From: a virus
Length of the DNA stretch: 64,000 nt
Strand: one strand, 5' to 3'
Virus record (IMG/VR): IMGVR_UViG_3300045988_107814
Span: 32,001 to 96,000 of that record
The first letter of the stretch is position 1, and each line of letters begins with the position of its first letter. The notes below the pieces were generated by a model that was not told where the DNA came from, did no database searches, and saw only the letters and a program-made list of their open reading frames with translations. Below, in pieces: positions 35,521 to 56,508 of the stretch. Position numbers and translations under genes: made by a program.

Positions 35521-36150
35521 TTATAAATCCAGAAAATTCATAAATGTTTGTATGTCAAGATTATCCTTATGAGATATAAACTCAACGATGAAATTATAGT
35601 TATTATTAAGATTATATATTCTAGCATCTAAATCCGTCTTTTTAGTGCCAGGTAACATACTCGGAGTTAAATATATAACCTTATTCTTTAATATATATCT
35701 AGAAGCTCCATCTGCTGTCTTTCTTAATAAAACGTCATTATAAAATCTCTCATCATTATTTAACCCAGAAATATAATCTGTATCAACACAAGATCTAATA
35801 TAAGAACTCAATTCCTCAAGAGTACTAATTGATTTGTTAAAAGAAGTCACTGCATTATATCTTGTAATAGAATCAAAATTTTCAAGAATTCCAATGTCTG
35901 TTTCGAATCCAACAGTTTTATCATATACAACATCTGTAGAATAAATCTTGTTAAAATATTTATCAGAAAGATTATTACACTTAGTCATTATAATATTTCC
36001 TGGATTAGTTACAAACAATATATTTCCAAATATATTGTGTCTAATGACATAAAAGTATTTATTTGTGTTTGTCTTAATCTTCATGCTTTTCAAATATGAT
36101 TTAAATATGGTAGAACTATTTTTGAGATCTTCTCCAAATATATTATCCAT
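35521..36150 (-). CDS. hypothetical protein, translationally coupled to the DNA polymerase N-part
   Basis: 209-aa ORF with a TAATG overlap with the stop of 36150..38192. Confidence 0.75.
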   Translation of the reverse strand: MDNIFGEDLKNSSTIFKSYLKSMKIKTNTNKYFYVIRHNIFGNILFVTNPGNIIMTKCNNLSDKYFNKIYSTDVVYDKTVGFETDIGILENFDSITRYNAVTSFNKSISTLEELSSYIRSCVDTDYISGLNNDERFYNDVLLRKTADGASRYILKNKVIYLTPSMLPGTKKTDLDARIYNLNNNYNFIVEFISHKDNLDIQTFMNFLDL

Positions 36151-38192
36151 TATACAGTCTCTCCAATCTGTTTAGGTTTACTATACAAATAACCATCCTT
36201 AAGACTATCATAAATTTCTGTAAAGTTATTAAAATCAGAATTGTCAAAGTCAAACTTAGGTTGATTGAACTTGTCTTTATTTCCAGATACAATAGCATTT
36301 ACAATTTCCAAGTCACGTTTATTATTACATTTAATAAACATACTTCTATCATCCATTTCAGGACTACCAGAAATATCATCAAAATCATGATATGTCATAA
36401 TTCCACTAGGATATTTCACTGTTGTAAAATACTCAATAATATCATCATACATCTCTTCATATCCAGCAAAATGGAACCAACGACTAAAGAATTCAATCCA
36501 GTTATGAGATTGTAGATCATCCATAAATTGTCCTTCTCGTTTCCATTTAACATCATCACGTCTAAATCTATTTTCAAATTCATATACCTTATTAGGAATA
36601 TTTACATGTCCAATCAAAGTTGTTCTAGACATATTAAATTCAGATGTGATAGATGGATACAAAGCTTTATAATCAAAGTCATCCAAGTTATCAAAGATTG
36701 AAATTGGAACACCATTAATTTTCATCTTAGAATAGTCACTGTTATATTTAGGATCCGCAACAAATGCTCCAGGGAAATTAACTTTAGGATTGTTTTGATT
36801 TGTGTTGTTTCCTATAATCATACCATAGTTATAATATGATTTAGCGGCTCTATTTTTAAGATATACTGTCTGACGATAAATCTTAGACCAACGAGTATTA
36901 TCAAGTAATACATTATTGTATGCTGAATCTATATCATTAACTTTGAATTCAATACAATACTGAACAATAGTATCCATAATATTATAAAATACAAATGTTT
37001 CATAATCTTTATATGGAAGATCAGCAAGTTTATTTGTAATATGACTATAATCAAGCTTCTTTACACCACAAGTAATTTCGCCGATATAATCCAATCGATA
37101 ATTTGCAATTGCCTTTTGACCTTTACGTCTAGATGCAAAGTGAATCATTTGATCAAGATATACAGAATAACTACTAATCTTTGCGAAATCATTACGTTCT
37201 TCATATTTGAACTGATTTCTTTCGTCAATCATATACTTTACTTCTTTATATTTAAAATCTGGACTACACATTATACCTTTAGGATTATATCCAAGATTAA
37301 TAATTCTTTGGATAATATACGGAATATCGAAAGCCATATTCCAAGCAAGTACAATATCAGGTTTAATATTGTTGATATAATTAAATAGATGCTTTAGCAT
37401 TATAATCTCATCTTTCTCATCATAGAAATGAAATTGTACAGTCATCTTATCTACTTTATATTTTCTTGCTTGTTTAGATCCACCTACAGCATTGATAAGA
37501 AAACTCTTTAATTTATTATGAAGAGCAGGAGTATGAGTTTCTTTTTCAAACTTTTCAATCAAAGGATTCTTATCATTTCTCAATAAGAATGAATGAACAA
37601 CTAATGACTGATCATCAATAAAAGACACTGCATTAATCGGACACTCACCCAACGAAACAAAATCTCCTTCACAATCAATGATATCAGCCTCAATATCAAG
37701 AAATGATTTAGTTGGTTTGGTATAGCTATTTTCATATGTGTGAGAAAATTGAAATCTAATATTATCTTCAATATCCATATCAGACATAAGAACTCTAGGA
37801 TCATAGTTACACATTGTTCTATTTCCTAATCTATTACCATTTCTGATATTATCATAGAATTTATTAAGAAGTCCTAATCTCTCAGCAATATCTTTCTGTA
37901 ACTGTTGATATGGAACAATTATACATTTACAATCATCTTTCATTGCATATTCCAAAGTATAATTTGGAATTTCTTGTCCATCAAGAAGCATATAATATTC
38001 ATAACTAGGATCAACAATAGTTTCAAGAAATTTCTCTCCTGTATTACAATCCTTGATAATTAAATCAATTGCTCCTGGTTGCCATTTACCAGACAAATCC
38101 TTTCTAGGATAATGGTAAATAGTATTCAACAAAGATAATGGATATCCTTTTGGATATTGACCTATTAAAAAATCATTATCATAATACTTCAT
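36150..38192 (-). CDS. family B DNA polymerase, N-terminal part (3'-5' exonuclease + polymerase motif A)
   Basis: ExoI FLDIEADI, ExoII LAWNMAFDIPYI, ExoIII FYNIMDTIV, and motif A DFDYKALYPSI. Motifs B and C are absent. Confidence 0.85.
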   Translation of the reverse strand: MKYYDNDFLIGQYPKGYPLSLLNTIYHYPRKDLSGKWQPGAIDLIIKDCNTGEKFLETIVDPSYEYYMLLDGQEIPNYTLEYAMKDDCKCIIVPYQQLQKDIAERLGLLNKFYDNIRNGNRLGNRTMCNYDPRVLMSDMDIEDNIRFQFSHTYENSYTKPTKSFLDIEADIIDCEGDFVSLGECPINAVSFIDDQSLVVHSFLLRNDKNPLIEKFEKETHTPALHNKLKSFLINAVGGSKQARKYKVDKMTVQFHFYDEKDEIIMLKHLFNYINNIKPDIVLAWNMAFDIPYIIQRIINLGYNPKGIMCSPDFKYKEVKYMIDERNQFKYEERNDFAKISSYSVYLDQMIHFASRRKGQKAIANYRLDYIGEITCGVKKLDYSHITNKLADLPYKDYETFVFYNIMDTIVQYCIEFKVNDIDSAYNNVLLDNTRWSKIYRQTVYLKNRAAKSYYNYGMIIGNNTNQNNPKVNFPGAFVADPKYNSDYSKMKINGVPISIFDNLDDFDYKALYPSITSEFNMSRTTLIGHVNIPNKVYEFENRFRRDDVKWKREGQFMDDLQSHNWIEFFSRWFHFAGYEEMYDDIIEYFTTVKYPSGIMTYHDFDDISGSPEMDDRSMFIKCNNKRDLEIVNAIVSGNKDKFNQPKFDFDNSDFNNFTEIYDSLKDGYLYSKPKQIGETV

Positions 38193-38430
38193 ATATTTTA
38201 CCTCCGTCTTTCTTAACTAACGCATTGCGTAACTTAATGACTATTATATATTAGTTTGTCAATGTATAAAAATCGAAAATAACTCCTCACGGTACCCGAC
38301 AACCGTGAGGAATCAAAATAAATTAACAGAGGAAAACAAACTCATAAGAGGAAATCATGTCCCAACCAGACCTTAAGGTAATATTTCAACCTTATTTAAA
38401 TGTTCAAAAATATTAGCGATTTATATGAAA

Positions 38431-38444
38431 AACATCTCTATAAT
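38431..38444 (+). promoter_or_regulatory. AACA-N6-TAAT candidate phage promoter
   Basis: AACATCTCTATAAT, 26 nt before the ATG at 38470. Confidence 0.4.
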
Positions 38445-38469
38445 TAGCACATAAAGGAGGAAACATTAT

Positions 38470-39420
38470 ATGTCTATGCTTAATTGTGATGTTTTTACAT
38501 CTCCAGAATCTGCAAATAAAGATTCTAACACTACTACTCCAATAGTTAATAATACTTCTGAGAGTACAGATCCACCTAAAAGAAAAAGAGGACGACCAAG
38601 AAAAAGTGAACAGCAGTCTAATACTTTAGAAGTTAGTGCTTCTTCTAATATTCAGAAACAAGATATGCATGTTCCTATGTGTCAATCTGATGAATCATAT
38701 GAAAATAATTATGATGAAACCAATAACATGTTGAAATATTCTATTATGCAATTGGATATCTTGGCAAATGATGTTAAATCAGAACTTGATTCTATTAGAA
38801 AGTCAAAGACCCTAAAAGGTAAATATCAATATATTTCTGATCTTTGTTCTACAGCTAGTAACTTAGTAAGTTCTAAGATTTCCGCTATTAAAGAAATCAA
38901 CTCTGTTAAAACAAACTGTTATAAACTAGAACTACAGAGAGCTAAAGATATTAGAACTTCTCAAGTTAATCAGCAAGATGATGATAAATATATTACAGAT
39001 CTATACAATGCTTATATTAATACTCCTGTTGGCGGAGTTCCTAATCCAGCATTACAATATACATCATCCAATATTGGTGGTAATATCAATGCTTATATGA
39101 ATGGTATGAACACTACTCAAGTTAATGAAGAACAAAATTTCCAGAATTATATGAATAACTTATCTCCAGAACAGAATAGAATGATTATTGGTGATAATCC
39201 TAATATTGAAACTGTAGTTGCATTTGATCCTAATACTGGAGAAAAGGCATTTGAAGTTATTGATACTAGTACAGGTTTATCTGTTCCTAATTATCCAAGA
39301 CCAAATGCCTCTTTATTAGATGATACAAGTGTAGATGTTTCTACAGGTATTGCCTCTAATACTAATATTGGACAAAGTTGGAAAGTTGTTGTACTTGGAG
39401 ATATGCTAAATAAGTTTTAA
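38470..39420 (+). CDS. hypothetical protein with N-terminal AT-hook
   Basis: 316 aa. KRKRGRPRKS is at about 38575..38610. Confidence 0.75.
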   Translation: MSMLNCDVFTSPESANKDSNTTTPIVNNTSESTDPPKRKRGRPRKSEQQSNTLEVSASSNIQKQDMHVPMCQSDESYENNYDETNNMLKYSIMQLDILANDVKSELDSIRKSKTLKGKYQYISDLCSTASNLVSSKISAIKEINSVKTNCYKLELQRAKDIRTSQVNQQDDDKYITDLYNAYINTPVGGVPNPALQYTSSNIGGNINAYMNGMNTTQVNEEQNFQNYMNNLSPEQNRMIIGDNPNIETVVAFDPNTGEKAFEVIDTSTGLSVPNYPRPNASLLDDTSVDVSTGIASNTNIGQSWKVVVLGDMLNKF

Positions 39421-39483
39421 TCTATATATTATTATAATGATTACATGAAGTAATCAAAATTTTACTTTTAAGGAGTTTAAATT

Positions 39484-39825
39484 ATGGAAATCAACATCGA
39501 TGGAATTGAAACTTTGGCAACTGATTTTTTCAGTAATCTTGACACTTGTCGTCCTGAACCCGTGCAACTTACTTTAGGTGAAGAATGTTATGTAGTAGAT
39601 CAATCTATGATAGATGAAGAGAATGAATCATATGCATTCATTCCTTGTATCGTTGTAAGAATTGATCAGTCTACAAGAATTCCTGGAAGATGGTATTATG
39701 CTCTTCAGGCAAAAGATTCAATTAATGATAAAGCGTTAAACTCTATTAGGGAAGGGGATTTATTATATTATAAATATCTTGAAAATACATCTCCGTTTCT
39801 TATGAAAATTAACGAAGTTAGATAA
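39484..39825 (+). CDS. hypothetical protein
   Basis: 113-aa ORF with AAGGAG upstream. Confidence 0.7.
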   Translation: MEINIDGIETLATDFFSNLDTCRPEPVQLTLGEECYVVDQSMIDEENESYAFIPCIVVRIDQSTRIPGRWYYALQAKDSINDKALNSIREGDLLYYKYLENTSPFLMKINEVR

Positions 39826-39856
39826 TCTTATCTAACGTAATCAAATTTAAAAAGAG

Positions 39857-39886
39857 GGATGAGTCGAAAGGCTCATTCTTTTTTGT
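39857..39886 (+). terminator. intrinsic terminator
   Basis: Stem GGATGAGTC/GGCTCATTC with a GAAA tetraloop, followed by TTTTTTG. Confidence 0.6.
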
Positions 39887-39902
39887 TAAAGGAGGTTAGA
39901 AA

Positions 39903-41207
39903 ATGGCATATAGAGAGATAAAAGTACAAGATGTATCTATAAGTAATCAGTTAAATAAAAATATTACTGTAGCACCTTTGCATCAAAGCTATGCGTTATG
40001 CATAGAATATATGAAACATTGGTTTTTAGAAAAGTTTGAAAAAGATTTCTTTTCTTGGATTCATATAGATGGTAGTCATGTATTTGGAGAGATATCCAAA
40101 ATTGATAAAAAGACTATTATGTCTCATCTAAGTGATGACAAAGCTGCTCTATCTATTATTCCTATGATAGATGATGATTATAATAGAGATAGATTAGATC
40201 AGAATTTATTCGGGATAGATCAATTTATCAATACTACAAAGATTGATAAGTCATTCTTTCAAGATCCAATTAATAGAAGATATATAATGATGCAGATGGA
40301 TATGATATTAATGACATTTACTTATAGAGTAAAAGTACCATCAAGAGCAATGCAGTTAGATTTACAGAAGTATATGAAATTAGCATTCAGAACAAACTTA
40401 TCAGAAACTAAAGATGCTGATTTAGACTATGTATTACCATATCCAATGATGCTATTTGTAGCCAAAGATTTAGGTTTTGAAATTAAAGATGACAGAATTT
40501 GTGAACCTCTTAAATTCCTTACTTATTTAAATAGTCGCTCATATATACCTATCACATATAAACGTTCTAATGTAAATGCTAGAGAAGAATACTTTGTAAG
40601 AGTAGATCATCTTCCAGTTAGATTAGGGATTAAAGATGTTATTAAAGATGACGGTAATAGATATGGTCATATTGCAGATGACTTTGGTATTGAAATGCAA
40701 GTAGAAGCTAGGTTTCCGGCAATGCAATTATATGTATATTTCACAAAAGAAGACTTTACAAAAGTTGCTTTTGGTAAAGAAGCATATAATATTGATAATA
40801 CTCTGATGATGTCTCTGCATTATTATGATGACCCACCGGCAATTAATGATAAGGGATGGAAACTTACAGTCAATGCTCAATGGGAAGAAGATAAACCTGG
40901 TAAAATAAATATTGATCTTAATGAATTATTTGATGGTGAATTGTCAGATATTTCTAAGAATTTATTGTCTAAATTTATTTCTCCTAGTGTATTTATAGAT
41001 ATACAAATCTATAGTGGAGGATTAAAATTAGAAGAAGTTGATATAGATTGGACTAATATGAAACTATCAGCAAACAACCCAACAAATAAACTAGTATCTA
41101 CATTAGCAATTTATATTGATCTTGATTATTTAAATAGTAATAGAATTGAAAGTTATGGTAACAGCTCTAGCAAGGTATTACCAAGTACCCCAGAAAGGTC
41201 TTACTAA
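39903..41207 (+). CDS. hypothetical protein (head-module neighbourhood)
   Basis: 434-aa ORF with AAGGAGG upstream. Confidence 0.75.
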   Translation: MAYREIKVQDVSISNQLNKNITVAPLHQSYALCIEYMKHWFLEKFEKDFFSWIHIDGSHVFGEISKIDKKTIMSHLSDDKAALSIIPMIDDDYNRDRLDQNLFGIDQFINTTKIDKSFFQDPINRRYIMMQMDMILMTFTYRVKVPSRAMQLDLQKYMKLAFRTNLSETKDADLDYVLPYPMMLFVAKDLGFEIKDDRICEPLKFLTYLNSRSYIPITYKRSNVNAREEYFVRVDHLPVRLGIKDVIKDDGNRYGHIADDFGIEMQVEARFPAMQLYVYFTKEDFTKVAFGKEAYNIDNTLMMSLHYYDDPPAINDKGWKLTVNAQWEEDKPGKINIDLNELFDGELSDISKNLLSKFISPSVFIDIQIYSGGLKLEEVDIDWTNMKLSANNPTNKLVSTLAIYIDLDYLNSNRIESYGNSSSKVLPSTPERSY

Positions 41208-41243
41208 GAACTTTATTATAAAACTACTAAGGAGGTCGATATA

Positions 41244-43856
41244 ATGAGTCTAACGTATAAAGACATTATTGTGCGTCAGAGAAATCTTTTATCTGAAGTA
41301 TATACTTGTGATACTAATGTATTGCAATTATATAATTCAATAAAAGAGAATTATTCTTTTGCCAAGGCTAAGTTATTTTTAGAGCATTGGTATGGGCTTA
41401 GAGTAGAGGATGTTGCTATCAATAAAGTATTAGAAGTATTTACTATTATTGCTGACAATGATAATGAATCTAATATTAAAAATGCTGCTAATATTATTGA
41501 AAGTAATATTATTCCAAAACTTCGTAATGCTAAACAAACAAATATGCTTAACCATTATAAACGTGGTTGGATTAAGCATAAACACACATCTATGCTTAAT
41601 GATACTAAAGATAATGAAACAGCAGTATCTAGAGCAAAAGCAAATAAAGGATATTTAGGAAATTCATTACATCCAAATAGAAAATATAAGAGAGATATAT
41701 ATGGTAGAAAAATGGGTGAAGTAAAGAAAGCCAACTCTCAAGAAAATGGTAGTGAAGAAGGACAACAAGACAACCAAAAAGTAACAGAAGAATGTTTTAA
41801 TAGATTTATTGCTAAAGCATTTGTCAATGAACAATGCGATAGAGTTTTGACAAATCATAGTAAATTAACAAGACGATTTAATCTAGATAGTATTATAAGA
41901 AAATGTCCTCTAGATCAAGCATCATTACAAGAGTGTGTATATAATATATGTAATCTTATAGATACTTATGATGCTCCTATTGGAGTAAAGTATGATATCG
42001 CTCTTGAAAATATCATGTATTTAATGAATAAAAACTGTGTTCCTGTGAGCAATACATTCATTATCGAAACAGTTACAGATTATTTTTTAATGTCTGAAAA
42101 TGAAAATCTTACTAATACAGCAAAGATTCATGATATGGTATATATTATTGAAAATTCTAAATTCTTTACAGAAGATGAATTAAAATGTGTATCTTATTTA
42201 TATGAAGATGAACAAGCTATTATCGAAGCTGTAGAGAATGAAGAAGATATAGATCGAGAACCATTAGAAGAAAATAAAGTACATGATATGTTTATGAAAT
42301 ATAAGAAAAAGAAAATAATTACATTAAAAAAGAAACAAAAGGTAGAATCTCTTAAAATTAAAAAAGAGATTCATGACTTTAAAAAACAACACAATAAATC
42401 TATCGAAAAATTTAAAGTTTCGATATCTAGAATTTTTGTTAATAGTCCAGAAGGTATTATTAATGAACTTCCAGATATATTTGCATTTGTTAGATTAGGA
42501 ATTGTTGTTGGTGGTTTTGCTATTAATCCTATTCTTGGTGTAATTACATTAGTAACTGGATTCTTTTTAAAAATGAAAGTATCTAGAGATAGAATGGAAA
42601 AAGTATGTGCTCAGTATGAAAAAGAACGTGATCATTATAAAAAGAAAATGAATGAAGCAACTGACGAAAAGAAGAAAAAGAAATATGAAGAACTGTATAA
42701 ACAGTATAAAAGTGATCTAAATAAATTAGAAATGTATAGAGATGAACTATATACAGAAAAAGAAAATGATAAGAGAATGGAAGAAAAATACGCTAAAGAA
42801 GCTGAAAATAATAATGATGATTTCGACTTTGATTTTGATATGGATTTTAATTTTGATGAACAGACTGCAATAGAATATACAGAAAGATTAGCTACATTGT
42901 ATGAGCAATTATCTTATGCTAAAGGAAATCTAATGAAAGCAGTATCTAGTAATATAAGTAATATGGATAGTAATGATATATATGGTATATCAGAAGCTAT
43001 TAAATTATGTAATGATATTGTGGATTGTCCAAGATATGTATCTATCCTAGAAGATGATTTATCAAGAACAAGAGCAAATAAATCTATATCATATATTTCA
43101 TCATTACAGAAGATTGATGCTATTAAAACATGTATATCAGATATAGATAAGATCAAATATAATGGTTTATTAGAAAATGCTTATGTAATAAACGATGACA
43201 CTGTTCAAAATGATATTATATATATTTATAAAACTCTAAAATGTAAATATGATATCATTGATGATACTATTGATTATATAACTAGTGCTATTACAGAAGC
43301 TAAAGATGAAAAATCTGGTATGTCATTTATGAGTAAAATGAAAATAGCATCTGAAAATCTTAGAAGAACAATGTTAAAAGCAAAAGATAAAGACAAACAA
43401 CTCAGTATGAAACTAGATAGCGAATTAAACAGAGTTACTAAGTCTGCTAAGAGAGCTATGATTAGTGATAGTAGAGAAAGTATTATTCGTGGTTCATTCT
43501 TACCATCTGCTTCTAAGTGTATTCATATCGCTCTAGCTTCTGGTGTTGCAGCATTATTTAGCCCAGTATTCGCAGTTATTGGTCTTATTGGATACATCGG
43601 TTGTTCTAAATCTTTAACAGAAAAAGAGCGTAATCTTATTCTAGATGATATCGATATAGAAATAAAAATGTGTGATAAATACATGAAAATTGCTGAAGAT
43701 AAGGATGATTTAGTTGCAGTTAGAGAAATAATGAAAACAAAACGAGATTTGGAAAGACAACGTGCTAGAATTCTATATAATAAAAAGTATATCTTCAAAG
43801 GAAAGAAACAATATGACATGCCTGATTTGAAAAAGAAACATGAAAATGATGATTAA
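41244..43856 (+). CDS. large coiled-coil, Lys-rich protein with two hydrophobic helices
   Basis: 870 aa. Hydrophobic segments are IFAFVRLGIVVGGFAINPILGVITLVTGFFL and IHIALASGVAALFSPVFAVIGLIGYIGC. AAGGAGG upstream. Confidence 0.75.
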   Translation: MSLTYKDIIVRQRNLLSEVYTCDTNVLQLYNSIKENYSFAKAKLFLEHWYGLRVEDVAINKVLEVFTIIADNDNESNIKNAANIIESNIIPKLRNAKQTNMLNHYKRGWIKHKHTSMLNDTKDNETAVSRAKANKGYLGNSLHPNRKYKRDIYGRKMGEVKKANSQENGSEEGQQDNQKVTEECFNRFIAKAFVNEQCDRVLTNHSKLTRRFNLDSIIRKCPLDQASLQECVYNICNLIDTYDAPIGVKYDIALENIMYLMNKNCVPVSNTFIIETVTDYFLMSENENLTNTAKIHDMVYIIENSKFFTEDELKCVSYLYEDEQAIIEAVENEEDIDREPLEENKVHDMFMKYKKKKIITLKKKQKVESLKIKKEIHDFKKQHNKSIEKFKVSISRIFVNSPEGIINELPDIFAFVRLGIVVGGFAINPILGVITLVTGFFLKMKVSRDRMEKVCAQYEKERDHYKKKMNEATDEKKKKKYEELYKQYKSDLNKLEMYRDELYTEKENDKRMEEKYAKEAENNNDDFDFDFDMDFNFDEQTAIEYTERLATLYEQLSYAKGNLMKAVSSNISNMDSNDIYGISEAIKLCNDIVDCPRYVSILEDDLSRTRANKSISYISSLQKIDAIKTCISDIDKIKYNGLLENAYVINDDTVQNDIIYIYKTLKCKYDIIDDTIDYITSAITEAKDEKSGMSFMSKMKIASENLRRTMLKAKDKDKQLSMKLDSELNRVTKSAKRAMISDSRESIIRGSFLPSASKCIHIALASGVAALFSPVFAVIGLIGYIGCSKSLTEKERNLILDDIDIEIKMCDKYMKIAEDKDDLVAVREIMKTKRDLERQRARILYNKKYIFKGKKQYDMPDLKKKHENDD

Positions 43857-43870
43857 TGGAGGTGAATAAT

Positions 43871-45025: not shown

Positions 45026-47104
45026 ATGCCAGTAATCGGTGAAGTAGCAAGCCGTAAGCCTGGTTCGTCTGGTTATTCCCATGACCCAATGGCTGGTTTT
45101 GCTAAAGAATTTTTAAATTTGTCTAATTCTATTCTAGAAGAGGCTAGACTAGATTTATATGAAGATACATCTAAGGTTTTAAGAACTAATGTTACAGATG
45201 AAACTATGAAGTCTTTCTTCATGGAAAATTCTGCTGACCCCGCAGGTATGACTACTGAGGAATATGAAGACCATATGGCTATGATGGAACAGGCTTATGA
45301 AAATGATAAGGAAGCCGTTCTTGAACATTGTGGTATGGGTCAATATAACCCAGTTGTAGGTATGACATTCCCGATTCATAAGAATATTATGCTTAACAAT
45401 ATCTTTGATAAGGGTGCTATTCCTAAGTTTGTAGCAACTTCTCCTAAGTTCACAGTTTCTATGGAAACAAGATGGTTGATTGATCCTGAAACTGGTGAGA
45501 AGATCGATATGTGGAAAGAACAATACAAGATGACTGATGCTATTGATAAGGCAGCACCAATGAAGTCTATGTATCTTCCACTCCCAGAAGCTGAGAATAC
45601 TAACATCCTGACAACTCTATTTGGTGTTCCTGAGGATCAGAATAATAACCTTTCTATTGAATCTTATATTTCTGGTCTAGTTGGTAGCCGTGTTGTATAT
45701 CCAGGTCAGACTGTAAATGCTTCTGTTGAAATTACAGATACCACTGATAATACTAAGACTTATCGTATTATTAAGTATACTAATACTACAACTGCCGCTG
45801 TTCTATTAGGTTCTGAATTAGCTGCTACTCCTGTTACAAAGCCTACTGACTTTGATAGTCAGCGTGATAAGCAGTTAGTTGATGAAAAAGGTCAGCCTAT
45901 TGTTGATGGTACTAAAGTAACTGCTAAGGTTGCTGGTGCTGTATTTGATTGGAGAGGTTCGTTTGTTCCAGCTTATGGCGGTTATGATCGTCAGATTTGT
46001 GAACAGTTTGCACTTCCTATGCCTTCTAAGGTAGAACCTGGTACTCTTCCTGGTACTACTAAGCTTACAGTTACTCTTGCAGATGGCACTACTGTTACAA
46101 TCGATAATACCACTAGTGAAGATTCTATTCCTGGTAATTACAGAACTGTAGGTTTTGTATCTGGTTTCTCTAAGGATAATCGTTTTGGTATTACATCTTC
46201 TAACGCTAATGTAGCAGGTGTAATTCTTACTTCCAGAATTGATACTTCTTCTGCTATGCTTAAGACAGCTTCTGTTTCTTGGAGTGTTCGTACTGATATT
46301 ATCGAAATTCCTAACCGAGTTCCGATTAATGTAACTATCAGCCCTGAAGAAGTTAAGGATATCGCAGCTCTGTATCAGATTAACCAGCTTACTAAGGTTA
46401 TGTCTCTGATGAAGATTTCTCTTGGTAACTATAAGGATGATCATATCAGACGTGAACTTGATGAAAGTTTCTTAACTATGCCTGATGATTCTAAGATTGC
46501 TCGTCAGTTTGACTTTGCTCCAACACAGTCTTATGCACTAGATCCAATCGAGTGGCGTCATAAGACATTTATGGATAGCTTAGATACTCATGCTACTCAG
46601 CTTCTCCATGTATTGAATGATCCTAACGTTACATTCAATATTATTGGTCGTGATGATCTTATCCGTAAGATTACTCCTACAGATTACACATATCAGTCTC
46701 CTTCTAGCATTGGTCCTGTTCAGCTAGACTTTGTAAAGACTGTTGTTACATCTGATAAGAGAACATATCAGTTCATTAGCTCTGACAAGCTTCGTGATTC
46801 TAACAACTTAATGATTATTGTTTGCCCAAGAAACTCTGAGAGATTCATTTATCGTATTTATGATTATCAGATGTACTTAAGCAACGAAATCAGAAATATT
46901 ACTAACCCTGCACTTCCAGCTGTTCATGCGTTCGAGCGTTGGGTAATGAAGGATTACCAGCCAGTTCAGGGACGTATTCGTATCCTCAATCCTACTGGTT
47001 TACGTAACTACGGTACTGATTATGCATTCAGCAATGATCCTACTGGTCGTGGTGACGGTATGAAGAGCATTGGTAAGAATGATTTCAACATTGATGCTAT
47101 CTAA
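45026..47104 (+). CDS. putative major capsid protein
   Basis: 692 aa, a size typical of jumbo-phage MCP precursors. It has a strong SD, distinct high-expression codon usage (ggt, cgt, ctt, tct) and the strongest terminator in the window right after it, and it follows a scaffold-like gene. No direct motif proof. Confidence 0.55.
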   Translation: MPVIGEVASRKPGSSGYSHDPMAGFAKEFLNLSNSILEEARLDLYEDTSKVLRTNVTDETMKSFFMENSADPAGMTTEEYEDHMAMMEQAYENDKEAVLEHCGMGQYNPVVGMTFPIHKNIMLNNIFDKGAIPKFVATSPKFTVSMETRWLIDPETGEKIDMWKEQYKMTDAIDKAAPMKSMYLPLPEAENTNILTTLFGVPEDQNNNLSIESYISGLVGSRVVYPGQTVNASVEITDTTDNTKTYRIIKYTNTTTAAVLLGSELAATPVTKPTDFDSQRDKQLVDEKGQPIVDGTKVTAKVAGAVFDWRGSFVPAYGGYDRQICEQFALPMPSKVEPGTLPGTTKLTVTLADGTTVTIDNTTSEDSIPGNYRTVGFVSGFSKDNRFGITSSNANVAGVILTSRIDTSSAMLKTASVSWSVRTDIIEIPNRVPINVTISPEEVKDIAALYQINQLTKVMSLMKISLGNYKDDHIRRELDESFLTMPDDSKIARQFDFAPTQSYALDPIEWRHKTFMDSLDTHATQLLHVLNDPNVTFNIIGRDDLIRKITPTDYTYQSPSSIGPVQLDFVKTVVTSDKRTYQFISSDKLRDSNNLMIIVCPRNSERFIYRIYDYQMYLSNEIRNITNPALPAVHAFERWVMKDYQPVQGRIRILNPTGLRNYGTDYAFSNDPTGRGDGMKSIGKNDFNIDAI

Positions 47105-47171: not shown

Positions 47172-47193
47172 TATTGAAAGGAGGATATCAAAT

Positions 47194-48402: not shown

Positions 48403-48447
48403 CAAAAAAAAATAACCGCATCATAAGACACGGCTATAAACAATATC

Positions 48448-48479
48448 GACACTGGAGAAATCCAGTGTCTATTGTTTTT
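48448..48479. terminator. bidirectional terminator between convergent genes
   Basis: Stem GACACTGGA/TCCAGTGTC with a GAAA loop, followed by TATTGTTTTT. Confidence 0.65.
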
Positions 48480-48966: not shown

Positions 48967-49059
48967 TTTATTTCCTCCTAATGACAAAATATATTTGAGG
49001 ATGACAATCGAGTCATCCTCTTCTTACACCTTAATATTATATAATACAATTATTGTTTA

Positions 49060-49770: not shown

Positions 49771-49800
49771 ATTACCACCACCTCTCCACAGTAATAAAGA

Positions 49801-51351
49801 CTACCACCATGCTTTATTACCATTATCATCTAATCTTTCAAATGGCATACCACCATATTTTATTAGTCTGTTGTGCATTACGTTAAATGCAGTATTTTTG
49901 AGTTGCTTGTTTGTAAATCTTATTTCCTTTGTATCGAGTGCATATTTATCATACATTGGAAGTGCGTTTTTATAATAATTATAAATAGGCTTTACAGAGA
50001 TATCTACTAGATCTATATAGAATGAATTATATTTTCTTGTCCTACCAAATCTCTGTTGATTCTGCGGTAACGATTTTGTAGGTTCAGCCATATTTATACA
50101 TACCATAAGATCATCAATATCCAAACAAGCCCCAGCAGATTTAGACGTTGTTAATATGAGTGTATTATTCTTTGCAGATGCTTTGTCTGGATTAATAGAC
50201 GTATAGATTCCAATATCATTAGCATACTCAGAATAGTTATATCTTAACCAATTATAAAAGAATACTATTGAATTATTGGTAGAAAAGAATAATAACTTCT
50301 TTCCTGGAATCTTACTAATCATATCCATAACAATTCTTGAAATATAGTCAAAGTTTTGTTTCAAGATAACAATATCATTATATGTCATCTTATTAAAACC
50401 ATGATTGCTAAAACAAGGTAACATCTCTTGTTCAGTCACACCACTCTTATAAAGCAATGCAATATAATGAGTATGAGGATCTGATTCAGGATCAAATAAC
50501 GATAGAGTTGGAACATTTCTAAAGTAATTCTGATATACTCTATCTTGATTAGAATCTCCTCTAGATGGTGTTGCTGATAGATATAATGTCTTATATACTG
50601 GAGAAGCATAATCTATATTGCATATATTATCAAAATTAAGATGTGCTTCATCTATTATCTTAAGACCGATACCAAGTTTATTAAACAATACATCTATAGA
50701 TTCCCAACCATTATTCTTTGCATATGAAAGAATAGTATCATGTGTTATAGTGTATACTTTATACTTATCTGGATTGAAATTACTTTTAATAATTTTATTC
50801 ATCATAATAGATCCTGATATAAACATCAACTCAGATGGAATAAGATTAGTATGCTGAAGATATGCATCTTTCCATTGATTAAGCCAATCTACAGAATTAG
50901 TAATAATAACTGTTTTTACATTCAACAATGCAGAGTAAACTATACCTAAATATGTTTTACCTGCACCTGTATTCAATGCCAAAAACAATTGATCATATTT
51001 TTTAGTATAACTATATTCGCCTTTACCAGAAAGAAACTTAAGTGCTAACTCTTGTTTCTCATCTTTAGGTGGAAACTTGATTAATATCTGATTTGTATTG
51101 AGCCTCGGTTTATTATAGGTGTTTTCATAAAATGCATAACAACCTACAATACGTTCTATAAATGGTATATCAACACCTCTTGGAATTGTATATGTTTTAT
51201 TTACTCTATCATAAACAACTCCAATAGATTTGAATGAGAATGTTGTCTTATCATAAATATCAAATAGTTTCTCTAACTCAGGTATATCACCAATATTATA
51301 ATTATTAATCACTATCTTATTATGATAAACAACTAACTTTCTGTTGTCCAT
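49801..51351 (-). CDS. SF2 DEAD/DEAH-box helicase
   Basis: Motif I LNTGAGKTY, motif II IIDEAH, motif III LSATPSR, motif VI QQRFGRTRK. Confidence 0.8.
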   Translation of the reverse strand: MDNRKLVVYHNKIVINNYNIGDIPELEKLFDIYDKTTFSFKSIGVVYDRVNKTYTIPRGVDIPFIERIVGCYAFYENTYNKPRLNTNQILIKFPPKDEKQELALKFLSGKGEYSYTKKYDQLFLALNTGAGKTYLGIVYSALLNVKTVIITNSVDWLNQWKDAYLQHTNLIPSELMFISGSIMMNKIIKSNFNPDKYKVYTITHDTILSYAKNNGWESIDVLFNKLGIGLKIIDEAHLNFDNICNIDYASPVYKTLYLSATPSRGDSNQDRVYQNYFRNVPTLSLFDPESDPHTHYIALLYKSGVTEQEMLPCFSNHGFNKMTYNDIVILKQNFDYISRIVMDMISKIPGKKLLFFSTNNSIVFFYNWLRYNYSEYANDIGIYTSINPDKASAKNNTLILTTSKSAGACLDIDDLMVCINMAEPTKSLPQNQQRFGRTRKYNSFYIDLVDISVKPIYNYYKNALPMYDKYALDTKEIRFTNKQLKNTAFNVMHNRLIKYGGMPFERLDDNGNKAWW

Positions 51352-51365
51352 TACAATTCACCTCT

Positions 51366-51401
51366 CAAAATAAAAAGGAACTACTCAAACAGAGTAGTTC
51401 C
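51366..51401 (-). terminator. intrinsic terminator after the beta-prime C-part gene
   Basis: 10-bp stem GGAACTACTC/GAGTAGTTCC, followed on the minus strand by TTTTTATTTTG. Confidence 0.65.
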
Positions 51402-51414
51402 CAAGTTTTACCGA

Positions 51415-53637
51415 TTAACCCATGAAAGTAAACAGTTCATTAGGCTTTCCTTCATTTTCCACAACCGGATTTTCTGCAAGGAATTTCTGAGGCTGAACCA
51501 TATAAAGAAGATCGTATCCAGACGGTTCACTCTTCTTATAGCTTAACGGGTTATAAAGCATTCTTGCAATATCCTGAGACTGAAGAGCTACAGAAATACT
51601 CGGATGAGTTTGAATAGCTTTCTTCAATGTCAGAATTGTATAATTCTGCTGATTAGGAACTGACCAGTCTGGAACGTCAATAATATTTTCAGCAGAACGA
51701 ATCTGATTCATAATGATAATCTCAAGATGAACACTCATAATTCCATCAAGACCAATGTTGTTAAGCTTATCACTCAACGCTTCAAGGAATGTCTCTGCTG
51801 TATAGCTATCTGTATTTGACTTTCTATCGATAACTCTAATAACAGATTCAAGTCTCTCAGACATATCATCATTATGAATACTTTCAAGATCAAACAAAGG
51901 ATAATCTTCACCGATAAGATTGTTTACTGGAATAGTAATATCTTCATCAACATCATTAATATTCTTGAGTTTAAGATACTCAATAAGCCATTCGCTTAAT
52001 TGGAAATTATCCAAGTTAGTAGACTTGATAGGATATTCCATACCAGTAGATTCATTTCTGAGATAAAATACATTTACATATTTAATAATCTCATCAAATG
52101 TTGCATCAATATCGTCATCATCAGATTCATCACTTTCGATAGCAGCAAACACTTCTTCTTGAATGTCACCATCTTTAATAATGAATTTCCATTTCTTAGC
52201 ATCTTCAAATTCTGGATTAATATAGATAGTACCATTATCAACTACAATAAGCTGTTCAAGTTGTTCCTTAGTAAGCATACTAGTATCAAATGTCAACTCA
52301 TCAATCTTTGCTTCGAGAAGATGTTTTGCAGACAACATCATCTGAGTCAACGGTTCTGTCAGATTTGTTACACTATAAATTCCAATATTTACAGCAGGAA
52401 TAATATTGTATAACTCACCCATACACTTTCTACAAACACCTCTACCCTCTGCGGCAGATCTACATTTGATTGGGCTTCTTAAATAGATTTCCTTTCCAAT
52501 AAGATTAGAATTAACTTTAGTGATATTATAAACATCACTAGTTCTATATTCCATTCCCATTGGGTCCAGTCTGTAATATCTATCGGCAATCTTCTTTAAT
52601 GCTACCTCATCAGTAACTTTGTACTTCAAGAAATTACGAGTACCACAATCATATCCAGGATCAATCTTATTTGTATATGGGATAGTATACTTCTTCGTTC
52701 TAGAACAATTAAGAATCATAATTCTACTAAACTGACCAGAACGAGCAGTATTTTTCTTTGACAGAATCTGTGCAATTCTTGCAATCAAAGACTCAAGAAT
52801 ATGAAATGCAACATTAGTAGCACCACCACTAATATAATTAGTGTTTACTACATAAGGGAAAATACCACCCTCGCCATTAGGCTTGACACCAATATTGATA
52901 TACATTTCACGAGCCTGTTTAGGTTTAATACCTTCTTTTGCTCTAAATGCATCAGATAAGCAATGATCTCTACCAATATATTTCTTAGCATTTACAATAT
53001 AATCGATAAGACGATTCATATCTTTTAATGCTTCTGCATTCATCTGCTCAGGTGGGAACTGAGAATAATAGTTGGTCTTATGTCTGTCCATAATTTCTTT
53101 AAAACCAGGGCAGTTATTATACATAAGAATAAAGTCTTCGTTGTTGATAGAATTGTTAAAGAACCACGCAAACTTATCAACAAACTTAAGATTCCTCAGA
53201 GTATCATAGATAATTCTATTAAGATTATGAATAATCATAATATCACTATCATTACCACATCTTTCTCTTGTAGGAATAATAGCAAATCTATCAATATACT
53301 TCTTGATATAGCCGTTGGTAATACCGTCCTTATTAAAGAATACATGATACGGTTTAATTGTTTGACCAGTTTTAATAATAAACTGCCAAACAATGATGTT
53401 GATAAGAGAATAAGACAACGGCAATCTTACTCTCATATTATTATCGAAAACGAATTCAATTTTTGTATTCTGAATTGCCTGAATTTCAATATAATCCAAG
53501 AATACATTTTTCAAATCATTAACATAATCATCAATGTTAGATTCATTGATATCACTTGTTCTAATGGTAACAGAATTACCATTAATCACTGGTGTAAAAA
53601 CACCATAATCATAAATTTGGGCAACGTTAGTGTTCAT
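51415..53637 (-). CDS. phage multisubunit RNA polymerase, beta-prime C-terminal-half homolog
   Basis: [24 protein letters not shown] matches bacterial [38 protein letters not shown] matches AAQSIGEPGTQLTMRTFH (trigger loop region). Confidence 0.75.
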   Translation of the reverse strand: [740 protein letters not shown]

Positions 53638-53717
53638 TATAAATTCCTCCTAAAACTATTGTTATGTAATAGTTTTTGACAAAGTCATTTCCTATTACAT
53701 GTTAATAATATACTAAT

Positions 53718-53757
53718 AAGAAAAAAATTAGTCAGTAGCTTAATCGCTACTGACTAA
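53718..53757 (-). terminator. intrinsic terminator after 53779..54237
   Basis: 12-bp stem TTAGTCAGTAGC/GCTACTGACTAA, followed on the minus strand by TTTTTTTCTTATT. Confidence 0.7.
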
Positions 53758-53778
53758 CCAAATCACATTATAATATAA

Positions 53779-54237
53779 TTAGTGACGAGTCTTGCTCATT
53801 TCCTTTGGTTGCAACTTAGGAGTATTGATATGCTTTTGGCCTTGACCAGAAACATACATACGCTGACCCTGGCGAGCTACAGTCTTAGCTTTGTTAGCAT
53901 ACTTCTTCTTAATAGCAGCTAAAAGCTTACGTTCCTGAATACGATTCTTTACAAGCTTCTTCCAAAGATTATCATTATTATCCTTGGCCAACTGTAAAGC
54001 AGCCATGCCTGTACGACGAGTCAAATCATCATTCTTATTTAAACGAACAATTGTCTTACGACTAATTTTCTTAGCTTCCTGAAGTACATCTGCATTTTCA
54101 AGAAGTTCACGCTTTTCTTCATCAGAATCAGAATAATGATCATCATAGAAGAAAGCTTCCTGAAGTTCATCCATATTTAAATACATCTGAACTTCTCTTG
54201 TGTCTTGAGCTAACTGCTCATTAGTATAAAGTCCCAT
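53779..54237 (-). CDS. basic hypothetical protein
   Basis: Trimmed to the ATG at 54237 (MGLYTNEQ), preceded by AAGGAGG. Confidence 0.7.
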   Translation of the reverse strand: MGLYTNEQLAQDTREVQMYLNMDELQEAFFYDDHYSDSDEEKRELLENADVLQEAKKISRKTIVRLNKNDDLTRRTGMAALQLAKDNNDNLWKKLVKNRIQERKLLAAIKKKYANKAKTVARQGQRMYVSGQGQKHINTPKLQPKEMSKTRH

Positions 54238-54309
54238 AGGATTAATCCTCCTTAATAAAATAAAATTTAATTGCAATTAAAAATATTTCGCATACTAATA
54301 CCAGTCTTT

Positions 54310-54323
54310 TTTATATAATTGTT
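54310..54323 (-). promoter_or_regulatory. AACA-N6-TAAA candidate phage promoter (variant)
   Basis: Minus strand reads AACAATTATATAAA. It sits back-to-back with the plus-strand site at 54343. Confidence 0.3.
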
Positions 54324-54342
54324 ATGATTTTAAAGTACGAAT

Positions 54343-54356
54343 AACAATTTGATAAT
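54343..54356 (+). promoter_or_regulatory. AACA-N6-TAAT candidate phage promoter
   Basis: AACAATTTGATAAT, 53 nt before the ATG at 54409. Confidence 0.4.
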
Positions 54357-54408
54357 AGATTATAATTATACGTAATAGGTAGTCTGACGAAAATTTGGAG
54401 GTTTTAGT

Positions 54409-56508
54409 ATGGACATTACTCAAATTGTTAAAAGTAAAACAACAGATCTTTATAAAAAAGATATGTTAGATGCACTTAAGTTATCTTTTCCAGGTATGAC
54501 AGAAACTGATTTAATGGAAGCTATTGATTATTCTATTACAAAAAGAGGTAGCGATAGTAAAGCATATCTAGATAATAACTATAAGAAAATAAGAGAAAAC
54601 AGAACTCTATTTGAAATTACTGATTATATTATACAGAGAGAACCAATCATTACAGTTTCAGGTGTAATGTTTAGAAAACATGGTTATTGTCCTAATCCTT
54701 TTGTAATGCTTATTCAGGAATTCTTGGAGCAAAGAGGTATTTATAAAAAGACAATGTTTAAATATCCTAAAGGTTCTGAGGAATTTGAAAAGTATAATAT
54801 TCTTCAGTTATCAGAAAAAGTATCTGGTAATGCAATGTATGGTGCTTCTGGTAATCATACAAGTATCTTTTATAATCTTTATGTTGCACAGAGTATTACA
54901 ATGCAAGGTAGAAGTTGTATTGCATCAGCTATTATGTTATTCGAAGCAACAATGGCTAATAATGTAAAGTTACTTAGTCTGAATGATGCGGTGACTTTTA
55001 TTACAAATATTAGACGTGAGCCTGTATTAAAGTATCCAGATGAATTGATTATTGATAAAGATAATTATGTAACTGTAGAAGAATGTTTCTTTAAGATTCT
55101 TTATAGTTCTGGATTCTATTGGATTCCTACAGAAAAAGAAATGACTCTTATTTGGGATATTCTTAATCAGTGTAATCAGCATGAATTGAATAAGATTTTC
55201 TATAAGAATAATCTATTTTGGTTTGTTGATAATAGCCTTGTTATGAACAAGATTATTTCTATTCTTTCTACTCTTGATGAGCCATTTATTGATCCTAATA
55301 GTCCTCCTGAATCTATTAAAGGTATGATGGATGAATTATATGATATGATCTATGAATGGGTTTATTATGATAAACAATATATGGATAGAATTGATAGAAC
55401 AGAAAATATGTACAGATGTGTATCTATGCTTACAGATACAGATAGCTGTTTTATTTCTTTTGATGGATGGTATAGATATATTCTTGATAAGACATTTAAT
55501 ATTCCTATGAAGATTAAAGAGCTTGAAATTGAAGAAAAAACAGGTGAAGTAAAGGAAGCATTTGATATAGGCTATGACTATGACTTTTATAAAGATGAAA
55601 TTATTGAAAGTCAGAATATTATTAGACCTGATGTAATTATTCCTCAGGTTGGTTTTCGTTGTAGTATCATCAATATTCTTGCAAGTATTATGGGAAGACT
55701 TGCTATTGATTATATGTGTAAGTATTCTGATAATTCTAATTCTACTATTTGTCATGATGGTTCTCGACGTAAAAGTTTCTTTATTCTTAAGAATGAATTC
55801 CAACTTAAACGTGCTTTGATTACAGATGGGAAAAAGAATTATTGTGCATATCAAGAACGTCAAGAATCTAATATTATTCCAAAAGAAAAAGCTCTTGCAA
55901 TTACAGGCATGCCGATCAAAAAAGTAGGTGTTCCAGAATCTACAAAAGTTAGACTTCAAAAAATTCTTCTTGAACAAATTCTAGATAATCCTGGCGAAAT
56001 TTCTCAAGTAGAAATTGTAAAACAGTTAGCTATATTCGAAAAACAAATTATTCAAGCTATCGAAAATGGTAGTAAAGAATATTTTAAACCAGAAAGAATC
56101 AAAGCTAAAGATGCTTATGATAATCCTATGAGAGAATCTGGTGTTAAGGCCGCAATAGCATTTAACTTCCTCAAGGATGACGATATGGAAGCTATTGATC
56201 TTGATGAAAGAAATAGTATTCTAAATATTAAAGTAAATATTGATCTTAAAAATATTGAGAATATGAAAGATAGATATCCAGATGTTTATAAACGTGCTAT
56301 TGAACTAATGTCAACAAGAAAAGAATTTGAAAAAGGAATTACTGCTATCGCTATTCTAGACAATATGCAAGTACCTGAATGGATTAAGGAATATATTGAT
56401 TATACTACTATTGTAAATGATAATCTTAGACCATTTCCTTGCGAAGCCTTAGGTATTGATAGAATGGACAACAAGAATATTAATTATACTAATATTTTGA
56501 AGTTTTAG
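54409..56508 (+). CDS. family B DNA polymerase, C-terminal part (motifs B and C, thumb)
   Basis: Motif B QLSEKVSGNAMYGASG (Kx3NSxYG), motif C MLTDTDSCFI (DTDS), and KKxY as GKKNYCAY. No exonuclease motifs and no motif A. Confidence 0.85.
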   Translation: MDITQIVKSKTTDLYKKDMLDALKLSFPGMTETDLMEAIDYSITKRGSDSKAYLDNNYKKIRENRTLFEITDYIIQREPIITVSGVMFRKHGYCPNPFVMLIQEFLEQRGIYKKTMFKYPKGSEEFEKYNILQLSEKVSGNAMYGASGNHTSIFYNLYVAQSITMQGRSCIASAIMLFEATMANNVKLLSLNDAVTFITNIRREPVLKYPDELIIDKDNYVTVEECFFKILYSSGFYWIPTEKEMTLIWDILNQCNQHELNKIFYKNNLFWFVDNSLVMNKIISILSTLDEPFIDPNSPPESIKGMMDELYDMIYEWVYYDKQYMDRIDRTENMYRCVSMLTDTDSCFISFDGWYRYILDKTFNIPMKIKELEIEEKTGEVKEAFDIGYDYDFYKDEIIESQNIIRPDVIIPQVGFRCSIINILASIMGRLAIDYMCKYSDNSNSTICHDGSRRKSFFILKNEFQLKRALITDGKKNYCAYQERQESNIIPKEKALAITGMPIKKVGVPESTKVRLQKILLEQILDNPGEISQVEIVKQLAIFEKQIIQAIENGSKEYFKPERIKAKDAYDNPMRESGVKAAIAFNFLKDDDMEAIDLDERNSILNIKVNIDLKNIENMKDRYPDVYKRAIELMSTRKEFEKGITAIAILDNMQVPEWIKEYIDYTTIVNDNLRPFPCEALGIDRMDNKNINYTNILKF

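Follow-up and report, generated by a model that had tools for sequence, protein, structure and literature searches.

A probable two-polypeptide family B DNA polymerase, divided between motifs A and B, in an uncultured jumbo phage of the AR9/PBS1-related lineage

Several family B DNA polymerases (PolBs) encoded by two genes are known. Among archaea, the two PolB genes of Methanothermobacter thermautotrophicus reportedly lie far apart on the chromosome, and the two distant genes of Nanoarchaeum equitans specify a split intein, such that the products are joined by protein trans-splicing. In the T4-like Aeromonas phages 44RR2.8t, 25 and Aeh1, the PolB reading frame is broken between motif A and motif B, giving two translated cistrons, 43A and 43B; for phage 25 the two products co-purify, with polymerase activity present (PMC2988022). 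An artificially split Pfu polymerase is likewise active as two chains (PMC3061061). The jumbo phages phiKZ and EL place exonuclease and polymerase on separate chains (PMC3201878; PMC7824862), and because the EL polymerase chain retains both catalytic Asp motifs (PMC3201878), the break in EL lies before motif A.

The nearest cultured relatives of the locus described here are the Bacillus phages AR9/PBS1, the Staphylococcus phages S6/MarsHill and the Yersinia phage phiR1-37, all of which carry the same two non-adjacent genes. The two-gene PolB is already annotated in AR9/PBS1, S6 and phiR1-37, one of the genes bearing the label "catalytic subunit", and our locus is a distant new member of that type. 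AR9 gp132 and gp152 have been described in print as the two-gene polymerase, and both are continuously expressed replication genes (PMC5312081); early promoters are annotated ahead of each. Induction of a DNA polymerase activity by PBS2 infection is among the findings cited in PMC12697855. Each half has a single match per complete genome in AR9, PBS1, S6, MarsHill and phiR1-37, and no full-length PolB was found in the complete genomes of AR9, PBS1 and S6. Although a first-pass annotation of our locus had regarded known split PolBs as adjacent cistrons, and a distant pair as correspondingly rare, genes divided at this same site lie 9-21 kb apart in AR9, PBS1, BpSp, S6 and MarsHill.

The window, by which we mean the entire 64,000-nucleotide stretch of DNA analyzed, belongs to a genome of approximately 215 kb. 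It probably derives from a jumbo phage of an AR9/PBS1-related lineage that carries multisubunit phage RNA polymerases and produces its PolB as two polypeptides that assemble non-covalently. The two open reading frames, at 36150..38192 on the minus strand (the N-part) and 54409..56508 on the plus strand (the C-part), are separated by 16,216 bp, an interval in which we count 12 ORFs that reach 100 aa and do not overlap one another, rather than the 15 or more genes initially proposed. Motif content and collinearity agree with the initial reading of a single PolB whose coding sequence is interrupted between motif A and motif B, the two pieces lying far apart and on opposite strands. Likewise, neither part is complete alone, since motif A (DxxSLYPS) occurs only in the N-part and motifs B (KxxxNSxYG), C (DTD) and KKxY only in the C-part, the full set being present only across both chains. 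Besides these two halves, no further PolB was found in the 64-kb window. Each gene possesses its own Shine-Dalgarno sequence, as originally noted, with GGAGG at 38201..38205 (minus strand), 8 nt before the ATG of the N-part, and at 54397..54401 (plus strand), 7 nt before that of the C-part. The candidate promoters once suggested for the halves fared less well: sigma-70-type matches upstream of both genes occur at chance level. A shared upstream element, TATATAAT, was also considered, but its 42 occurrences in the window versus 26 expected amount to a mild enrichment that is not specific to gene starts.

The N-part encodes 680 aa: an N-terminal domain is followed by a 3'-5' exonuclease and then by the palm's first strand, which bears motif A. 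It matches Pfam DNA_pol_B_exo1 (6.7e-8) and phrog_3011 (1.6e-53), while a single-sequence search against PDB sequences returned nothing for it and a profile search was needed: by hhalign, residues 158-532 align with residues 106-436 of an RB69-like gp43 at a probability of 99.5%. The three exonuclease motifs typical of family B all lie on this chain. Exo I (DxE; D166/E168), Exo II (NxxxFD; N285/D289) and Exo III (YxxxD; Y403/D407) match RB69 gp43 in alignment and do not vary among the 15 sequences compared. Motif A, DFDYKALYPS (residues 505-514; 36651..36680, minus strand), contains the counterparts of RB69 D411 and Y416 at D507 and Y512, and its D505, D507, Y512, P513 and S514 show no variation across a set of 15 sequences that includes AR9, S6 and phiR1-37. 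Beyond the RB69-homologous region lies a conserved tail (residues ~533-590; 36423..36596, minus strand) common to AR9, S6 and fused, single-chain relatives, in which S562 and F568 are near-invariant; the tail is a candidate interface segment. The remaining residues, ~591-680 (36153..36422, minus strand), form a clade-specific and poorly conserved extension that is missing from both AR9 (554 aa) and the single-chain relative P0333.

The C-part encodes 699 aa, arranged as a family-specific head, a pre-finger hairpin, the fingers, a long insert, motif C, KKxY and the thumb. It matches Pfam DNA_pol_B (1.2e-13; residues 100-187), PF20286 (9.6e-29; residues 453-690) and phrog_2927 (1.1e-55), and a single-sequence search against PDB sequences gave one weak match. 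The head (residues 1-77; 54409..54639, plus strand) is conserved in AR9 and S6 too, with Y15, P28 and I43 invariant. Within the fingers, R109 and K113 correspond to Tgo R460 and K464. Motif B, KVSGNAMYG (residues 137-145; 54817..54843, plus strand), matches RB69 K560 to G568, and while its K137, N141 and G145 are invariant, Y144 is present in at least 90% of relatives. Motif C, DTDS (residues 343-346; 55435..55446, plus strand), is invariant in both a 13-sequence and a 44-sequence alignment. In the latter, the KKxY primer-binding motif KKNY (residues 475-478; 55831..55842, plus strand), equivalent to K705-K706-R-Y708 of an RB69-like polymerase, has an invariant Y478 and K475/K476 in at least 90% of sequences. 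The thumb and C-terminal region (residues 453-690; 55765..56478, plus strand) correspond to PF20286, a divergent family B DNA polymerase family whose match is restricted to this segment, at model positions 454-697 of 705.

Structure prediction was of limited help in locating the break. An AF2 model of the C-part built from the 44-sequence alignment has a mean pLDDT of 70, but the palm core is poorly predicted and values drop below 50 around motif C and KKxY, and a Foldseek search of this model against the PDB recovered only Pol alpha (E 0.026, TM 0.13-0.15). Because structure-based mapping failed, the break was mapped by sequence profiles. Once profile positions are shifted by 3 residues to match window numbering, residues 131-170 of the C-part align with RB69 554-593 and residues 100-193 with Tgo PolB 451-543; further along, residues 473-607 align with 703-833 of an RB69-like polymerase. 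By these alignments the break falls in the palm, between motif A and the pre-finger hairpin, at RB69 ~437|455. It had initially been placed in the fingers, but both finger helices belong to the C-part and the break is N-terminal to them. The expectation that the two parts would not overlap is borne out, as their RB69 gp43 alignments are collinear and share no segment. Additional sequence flanks the break on either side: the N-part continues for about 148 aa once its homologous region ends, and the C-part has about 77 aa before its own begins. Fission probably occurred inside a lineage-specific insertion separating motif A from the fingers.

Single-chain relatives from metagenomes illustrate how the two parts fit together. 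P0333 (1224 aa; sibling P0393, 1231 aa) and P0342 (1276 aa) belong to the same divergent PolB lineage, share the tail, head and insert, and are collinear with N-part plus C-part; the single-chain form is one uninterrupted ORF (L170, 10001-13831). On these proteins the N-profile extends over residues 21-560 and the C-profile over 580-1224, so the halves abut, with no more than 20-35 linker residues between them. The N-part tail itself aligns to P0333 as far as ~553, and N-profile A1 covers it to P0333 560, with the C-part head following directly. NJ trees do not resolve whether single-chain forms fall inside or outside the split forms.

The divided arrangement is widely maintained. Metagenomic homologues number in the hundreds, on contigs of 210-250 kb, with the split preserved, and the C-part profile matches 2163 cluster representatives. 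Nearly all complete entries are half-length, at 630-704 aa and 696-722 aa; one is 793 aa and others are shorter. In 20 related contigs (19 from IMG/VR, 1 from JGI) the halves are separate and 16-32 kb apart, with every relative orientation represented. Both halves are under strong purifying selection, with dN/dS of 0.07-0.18 against relatives (0.085 for the N-part) and saturated synonymous change.

Comparison with the cultured phages extends to the neighborhood of the two genes. The N-part is 33% identical to AR9 g132 (AR9 2-535 with window 19-575, the same end position), and the C-part is 26.5% identical to AR9 g152 (AR9 18-641 with window 15-699, the same start position). The window holds homologues of the AR9 portal, g153, g154 and g156, and shares with AR9 two blocks of micro-synteny, one running from portal to N-part and the other comprising C-part, virion protein, nvRNAP beta' and helicase; RNAP beta/beta' fragments lie at 18758-20560 and 51415-53637. 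There are also differences. In cultured AR9/PBS1-type phages the halves share a strand with the C-part upstream, whereas in the window they are divergent; the N-part of the window has ~90-100 aa more at its C-terminus than that of AR9; and the gene downstream of it, a DnaQ-like exonuclease (g131) in AR9, is here an unrelated 209-aa protein. Phage phiR1-37 offers a closer parallel in orientation: its g170/g167, annotated as B-family DNA polymerase and catalytic subunit, show the same N/C break and are divergent on opposite strands, but are just 2 kb apart compared with 16 kb in the window. Its C-part is split again, with g167 running from fingers to motif C and an unannotated g164 (242 aa; E 2.6e-38) supplying KKxY and the thumb. 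The genomes of PBS1/AR9, S6 and phiR1-37 contain dU; no gene of the dU pathway was recognized in the window, and a Pfam scan of ten neighboring ORFs gave no match.

This polymerase most likely works as a heterodimer held together non-covalently, its active site being made up from both chains. The two independently translated genes would give rise to two polypeptides that assemble after translation into one replicative enzyme; both genes may be co-expressed, by analogy with AR9, where each follows an early promoter and is continuously expressed. The N-part would provide the N-terminal domain, the proofreading exonuclease and a first palm strand bearing the metal-ligand aspartate D507 and the steric-gate tyrosine Y512, while the C-part would bring the pre-finger hairpin, the finger helices (R109, K113, K137, N141, Y144), D343/D345, the KKxY primer grip and the thumb. 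In essence, the active site would be composite because motif A resides on the N-part, and motifs B, C and KKxY on the C-part. From their contiguity in single-chain relatives, the N-part tail (~533-590) and C-part head (1-77) probably form the interface through which we infer that the heterodimer assembles.

Whether the neighbor of the N-part contributes to such an enzyme is a separate matter. The 209-aa gene (35521..36150, minus strand) overlaps the N-part stop codon in the TAATG remarked upon from the outset, and could encode an accessory protein. Its family is fast-evolving, with dN/dS of 0.14-0.20, and always lies immediately downstream of the N-part in the window's clade. Neither scanning 22 members of the family against Pfam nor searching the PDB with a profile yielded anything meaningful, and the family HMM matched neither AR9 g131, S6_0800 and phiR1-37 g171 nor any ORF adjoining a fused polymerase. 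An AF2 model from a five-sequence alignment reached a pLDDT of 50 and is unusable; its Foldseek matches, a few clamp proteins at E ~1 among them, are noise and carry no weight here. To our knowledge, no sliding clamp has been found in the window's lineage. One can envisage a clade-specific three-component enzyme, in which the heterodimeric PolB is held by the N-part tail and C-part head and the 209-aa protein is a third subunit, although we consider this rather unlikely; the protein could then be a processivity or assembly factor, for which possible docking sites are the acidic, clade-specific extension of the N-part and the conserved peptide (..INYTNI..) at the C-terminus of the C-part.

It is unlikely that the halves work separately, with the N-part a stand-alone proofreading exonuclease of phiKZ-like character whose motif A is vestigial, and the C-part polymerizing with a substitute first metal ligand. 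The separate exonuclease and polymerase chains of phiKZ/EL (PMC3201878; PMC7824862) lend this proposal some weight, as does the match of the C-terminal third of the C-part to the phiKZ-type PF20286, but the EL polymerase chain has both Asp motifs (PMC3201878) and here motif A is on the N-part alone. That motif is invariant from the window's clade to AR9, S6 and phiR1-37, and the C-part lacks any motif A-like element; the LDNNY motif in its head accompanies a genuine motif A in fused relatives.

Joining of the halves after expression, whether by a split intein of the N. equitans PolB type or by RNA trans-splicing, appears very improbable. The extra sequence on both sides of the break (~148 aa and ~77 aa) would be compatible with it, and group I introns do invade homologous polymerase genes in relatives. 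However, neither half contains a Pfam Hint or intein domain, no Rfam intron was matched in the window, and each half has a Shine-Dalgarno sequence, ATG and stop codon of its own. The initial conclusion that no intron or intein is involved thus stands, but the argument offered for it does not, as a split intein should not be judged by looking for Cys, Ser or Thr behind the initiator Met. An arrangement of the N. equitans type calls for an N-intein closing the first chain and, opening the second, a C-intein whose final HN precedes Cys/Ser/Thr, and we found neither; instead of a terminal His-Asn, the head carries a conserved Asn57 followed by Tyr58. In its AF2 model the head consists of helices and a short hairpin (pLDDT 57-87), a predicted fold that is not intein-like, and because single-chain relatives carry the tail and head sequences side by side, these are extein rather than intein.

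Our view takes in 64 kb of the genome, yet there is almost no reason to credit a scenario in which the ORFs are decaying remnants and replication falls to another polymerase elsewhere in the genome or to the host, given the dN/dS of 0.07-0.18 and saturated synonymous change in both halves, the invariance of all catalytic residues, the retention of the split in hundreds of genomes, and the complete genomes of AR9, PBS1 and S6, in which each half is matched once and a full-length PolB is absent.

Taken alone, the locus does not change current knowledge, the two-gene polymerase being a conserved and annotated trait of AR9/PBS1-like jumbo phages, but that trait now reaches a large and diverse uncultured clade. 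The family would offer a usable system for investigating how an active site is assembled from two chains, with the single-chain relatives serving as a natural fused control. Among known split polymerases, those of archaea belong to a different lineage, and the trans-splicing of N. equitans has left no sign in the window. Several features are shared with phiKZ/EL: a jumbo phage with multisubunit RNAPs, exonuclease and polymerase functions on chains encoded apart, a long insert before motif C, and a homologous C-terminal region (PF20286, residues 453-690). Unlike EL, the window has motif A on the exonuclease chain and none on the C-part, and because motif A travels with the exonuclease the active site is expected to be composite. 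The 43A/43B genes of 44RR2.8t, by comparison, are adjacent across a 49-nt gap, against 16 kb in the window, and they are broken at the tip of the fingers (RB69 512|521), which leaves the first finger helix on the exonuclease half; in the window, with its break at RB69 ~437|455, both finger helices are in the C-part. The break site is structurally distinct from both the phiKZ exonuclease/polymerase and the T4-like 43A/43B splits, and it separates one catalytic aspartate from the other two, which lie on the partner chain.

The window encodes a family B DNA polymerase (PolB) divided between two genes. Both open reading frames proposed in the first-pass annotation are present at exactly the positions it gave. 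The N-part (36150..38192, minus strand; 680 aa) has Pfam matches to DNA_pol_B_exo1 and, at a weak level, to the beginning of DNA_pol_B; it matches PHROG 3011 as well, a "DNA polymerase" family of 576 positions made up of half-length proteins. The C-part (54409..56508, plus strand; 699 aa) matches DNA_pol_B at residues 100-187, PF20286 ("divergent family B DNA polymerase") at residues 453-690, and the 710-position family PHROG 2927. When each half was aligned separately with diverse homologues, including those of AR9, S6 and phiR1-37, the PolB catalytic residues formed invariant columns in both alignments. The N-part carries Exo I (D166/E168), Exo II (N285/D289), Exo III (Y403/D407) and motif A (D505-x-D507...Y512-P-S514), and the C-part carries motif B (K137/N141/Y144/G145), motif C (D343-T-D345) and KKxY (K475-K476-x-Y478). 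The first-pass observation is right and stands well above chance, and its reading as a genuine two-gene PolB is supported. No further PolB was found by tblastn of PolB queries against the 64-kb window.

The surroundings of both genes have features of their own. About 90 nt 5' of the N-part start, the divergent intergenic region contains a strong terminator-like hairpin (38280-38315, minus strand; 14 pairs followed by a T-rich tail), with no minus-strand gene just upstream as a termination target. Some 650 bp 3' of the C-part begins one long open reading frame (57152-64000, plus strand; 2283 codons or more), which extends past the window end and probably encodes a giant virion protein.

Strong purifying selection acts on both halves: measured against relatives about 85% identical, the N-part has a dN/dS of 0.085 and the C-part one of 0.07-0.18. 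Each has more than 100 homologues, close and distant, of matching length in nearly all cases and on contigs of 210-250 kb. Twenty contigs, 19 from IMG/VR and one from JGI, allowed the halves to be paired; on none of them are the two genes adjacent, and they lie 16.1-32.1 kb apart. Between the window's halves we count 12 sizeable open reading frames, fewer than the 15 or more first estimated, with structural and replication genes interleaved. The two genes are divergent in the window and its closest relatives, and convergent or same-strand in more distant ones. In many IMG/VR relatives spacing stays near 16-19 kb despite these differing orientations, which suggests repeated inversions of blocks ending near the polymerase genes.

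Although a break in the fingers had been proposed, profile alignments place it in the palm, at about RB69 437|455, past motif A and ahead of the pre-finger hairpin, so that both finger helices reside on the C-part. N-part residues 158-532 correspond to 106-436 of RB69-like gp43, and C-part residues 100-193, 131-170 and 473-607 to Tgo PolB 451-543, RB69 554-593 and RB69-like 703-833, respectively (the Tgo and RB69 554-593 correspondences allow for the 3 residues by which profile and window numbering differ). Read against the Tgo alignment, Tgo R460/K464 are C-part R109/K113. The halves are collinear with known PolBs, without overlap. Flanking the break, about 148 residues of the N-part (its tail) and about 77 of the C-part (its head) lack an RB69 counterpart.

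Single-chain relatives clarify these flanks. The C-part profile, run through HMMER exhaustively, recovered 2163 cluster representatives, and the top 150 of these include two long proteins, P0333 (1224 aa) and P0342 (1276 aa), each with Exo I and motifs A, B, C and KKxY on one chain. P0333 has an independent sibling from JGI (P0393, 1231 aa), and P0342 is an unbroken frame at 10001-13831 of a 68-kb Logan SRR30642449 contig. In P0333, residues 21-560 are matched by the N-family profile, and 580-927 and 949-1224 by the C-family profile. An overlap between the parts had been named beforehand as one sign against a split; in this coverage they abut. By pairwise alignment, conservation of the window N-part extends to about residue 574, and that of the C-part begins near residue 14. 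Together, coverage and alignment show that where the protein is unsplit, tail and head make up a single uninterrupted insertion specific to the lineage; the fission falls inside it, in a linker no longer than 20-35 residues. Neither AR9 nor P0333 has an equivalent of the final 90-100 residues of the window N-part. These single-chain members of the same divergent lineage may themselves be re-fusions.

Joining of the halves by an intein or intron, already discounted in the first pass, finds no support here either. Pfam detects no Hint or intein domain in either half, the C-part head is predicted to be helical, its conserved Asn57 is followed by Tyr rather than a nucleophile, and the segments flanking the break are extein in fused relatives; Rfam and ARAGORN scans of the window gave neither an intron nor a tRNA. 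Nothing in the sequences points to covalent joining. In the best-supported model, which we favor, the two chains pair non-covalently as a heterodimer whose active site is composite, an assembly we infer. One chain, the N-part, would supply the motif A Asp and steric-gate Tyr, and the other would supply the fingers, motif C aspartates, primer grip and thumb. There are precedents for working PolBs made of two chains: in phage 25, the products of 43A and 43B co-purify and polymerase activity comes with them (PMC2988022), and Pfu polymerase stays active after an accidental split at the finger tip (PMC3061061).

Directly downstream of the N-part lies a 209-aa gene (35521..36150, minus strand) with a GGAGAG of its own upstream; the TAATG overlap with the N-part stop is borne out, by one base. 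More than 35 related loci have a homologous gene of 170-280 aa directly 3' of the N-part, usually overlapping its stop or within 12 nt of it. The family is fast-evolving and clade-specific (dN/dS 0.14-0.20), always follows the N-part gene directly, and has the conserved motifs K-x-[AS]-D-G and LPxxKSD...L.IY...KK. It has no match in Pfam or PDB sequences, no detectable homologue in AR9, S6 or phiR1-37, and none found beside a fused polymerase; a predicted structure model was unusable. AR9 instead has a DnaQ-like exonuclease in this position, to which the 209-aa protein is unrelated. Position alone makes a putative accessory role plausible.

Distant placement, implied to be rare, is the norm in this phage lineage. 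The best cultured-phage matches all carry the same two genes, with one match per half in every complete genome: about 15 kb apart in Bacillus phages AR9 and PBS1, 8.8 kb in B. pumilus phage BpSp, 19-21 kb in Staphylococcus phages S6, MarsHill and DC4, and 2 kb, on opposite strands, in Yersinia phage phiR1-37. In AR9, an annotated early promoter precedes each half, and both are listed with continuously expressed replication genes (PMC5312081). In small synteny blocks shared with AR9, the portal lies close to the N-part, and the C-part adjoins genes for a virion protein, nvRNAP beta' and a helicase; these blocks indicate that the gene separation predates the divergence of these lineages. The window also bears hallmarks of AR9/phiKZ-type jumbo phages: two multisubunit RNAP fragments (18758-20560 and 51415-53637, both minus strand, the latter homologous to AR9 g154, the C-terminal subunit of nvRNAP beta'), a gene for a major head protein (45026-47104, plus strand), a portal (31865-34174, minus strand; homologous to AR9 g128) and an SF2 helicase (49801-51351, minus strand; homologous to AR9 g156).

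Further divisions occur among the relatives. The phiR1-37 C-part is itself in two, g167 (10911-12173, minus strand; 420 aa), spanning profile positions 47-367 from fingers to motif C, and the unannotated g164 (9850-10578, minus strand; 242 aa), spanning 464-686 with KKxY and thumb (E 2.6e-38), making this a three-gene PolB. A break at about 463|464 recurs in metagenomic representatives, as proteins of 476-492 and 234-238 aa. Relatives' polymerase genes also carry insertions exactly within catalytic motifs, while the window genes are uninterrupted. In the N-part the site is 507|508 in motif A (DFD|YKALYPS): the insert in IMGVR_UViG_3300018495_000001 (11461-11828) is a 409-nt group I intron (Rfam, 77 bits), and two other contigs (L055 and L060, at about 11.5-12.6 kb) hold 1.1-kb inserts with an ORF of 276-287 aa. 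In the C-part, contigs L100 and L101 (L101 3411-3897) have a 485-nt insert at 143|144 in motif B (..NAM|YG), with no Rfam match at the gathering threshold.

Other split or divergent PolBs differ from the window's. In the T4-like Aeromonas phage 44RR2.8t, 43A and 43B are adjacent cistrons and the break, mapped here to RB69 512|521, is at the finger tip, whereas the window's lies elsewhere. The EL polymerase chain holds both catalytic aspartates, so its break differs too, and the related phiKZ-type enzyme is without a fused exonuclease (Iyer et al., PMC7824862; Kazlauskas & Venclovas, PMC3201878). The window pair is a distant member, at about 30% identity, of an already known kind of two-gene PolB.
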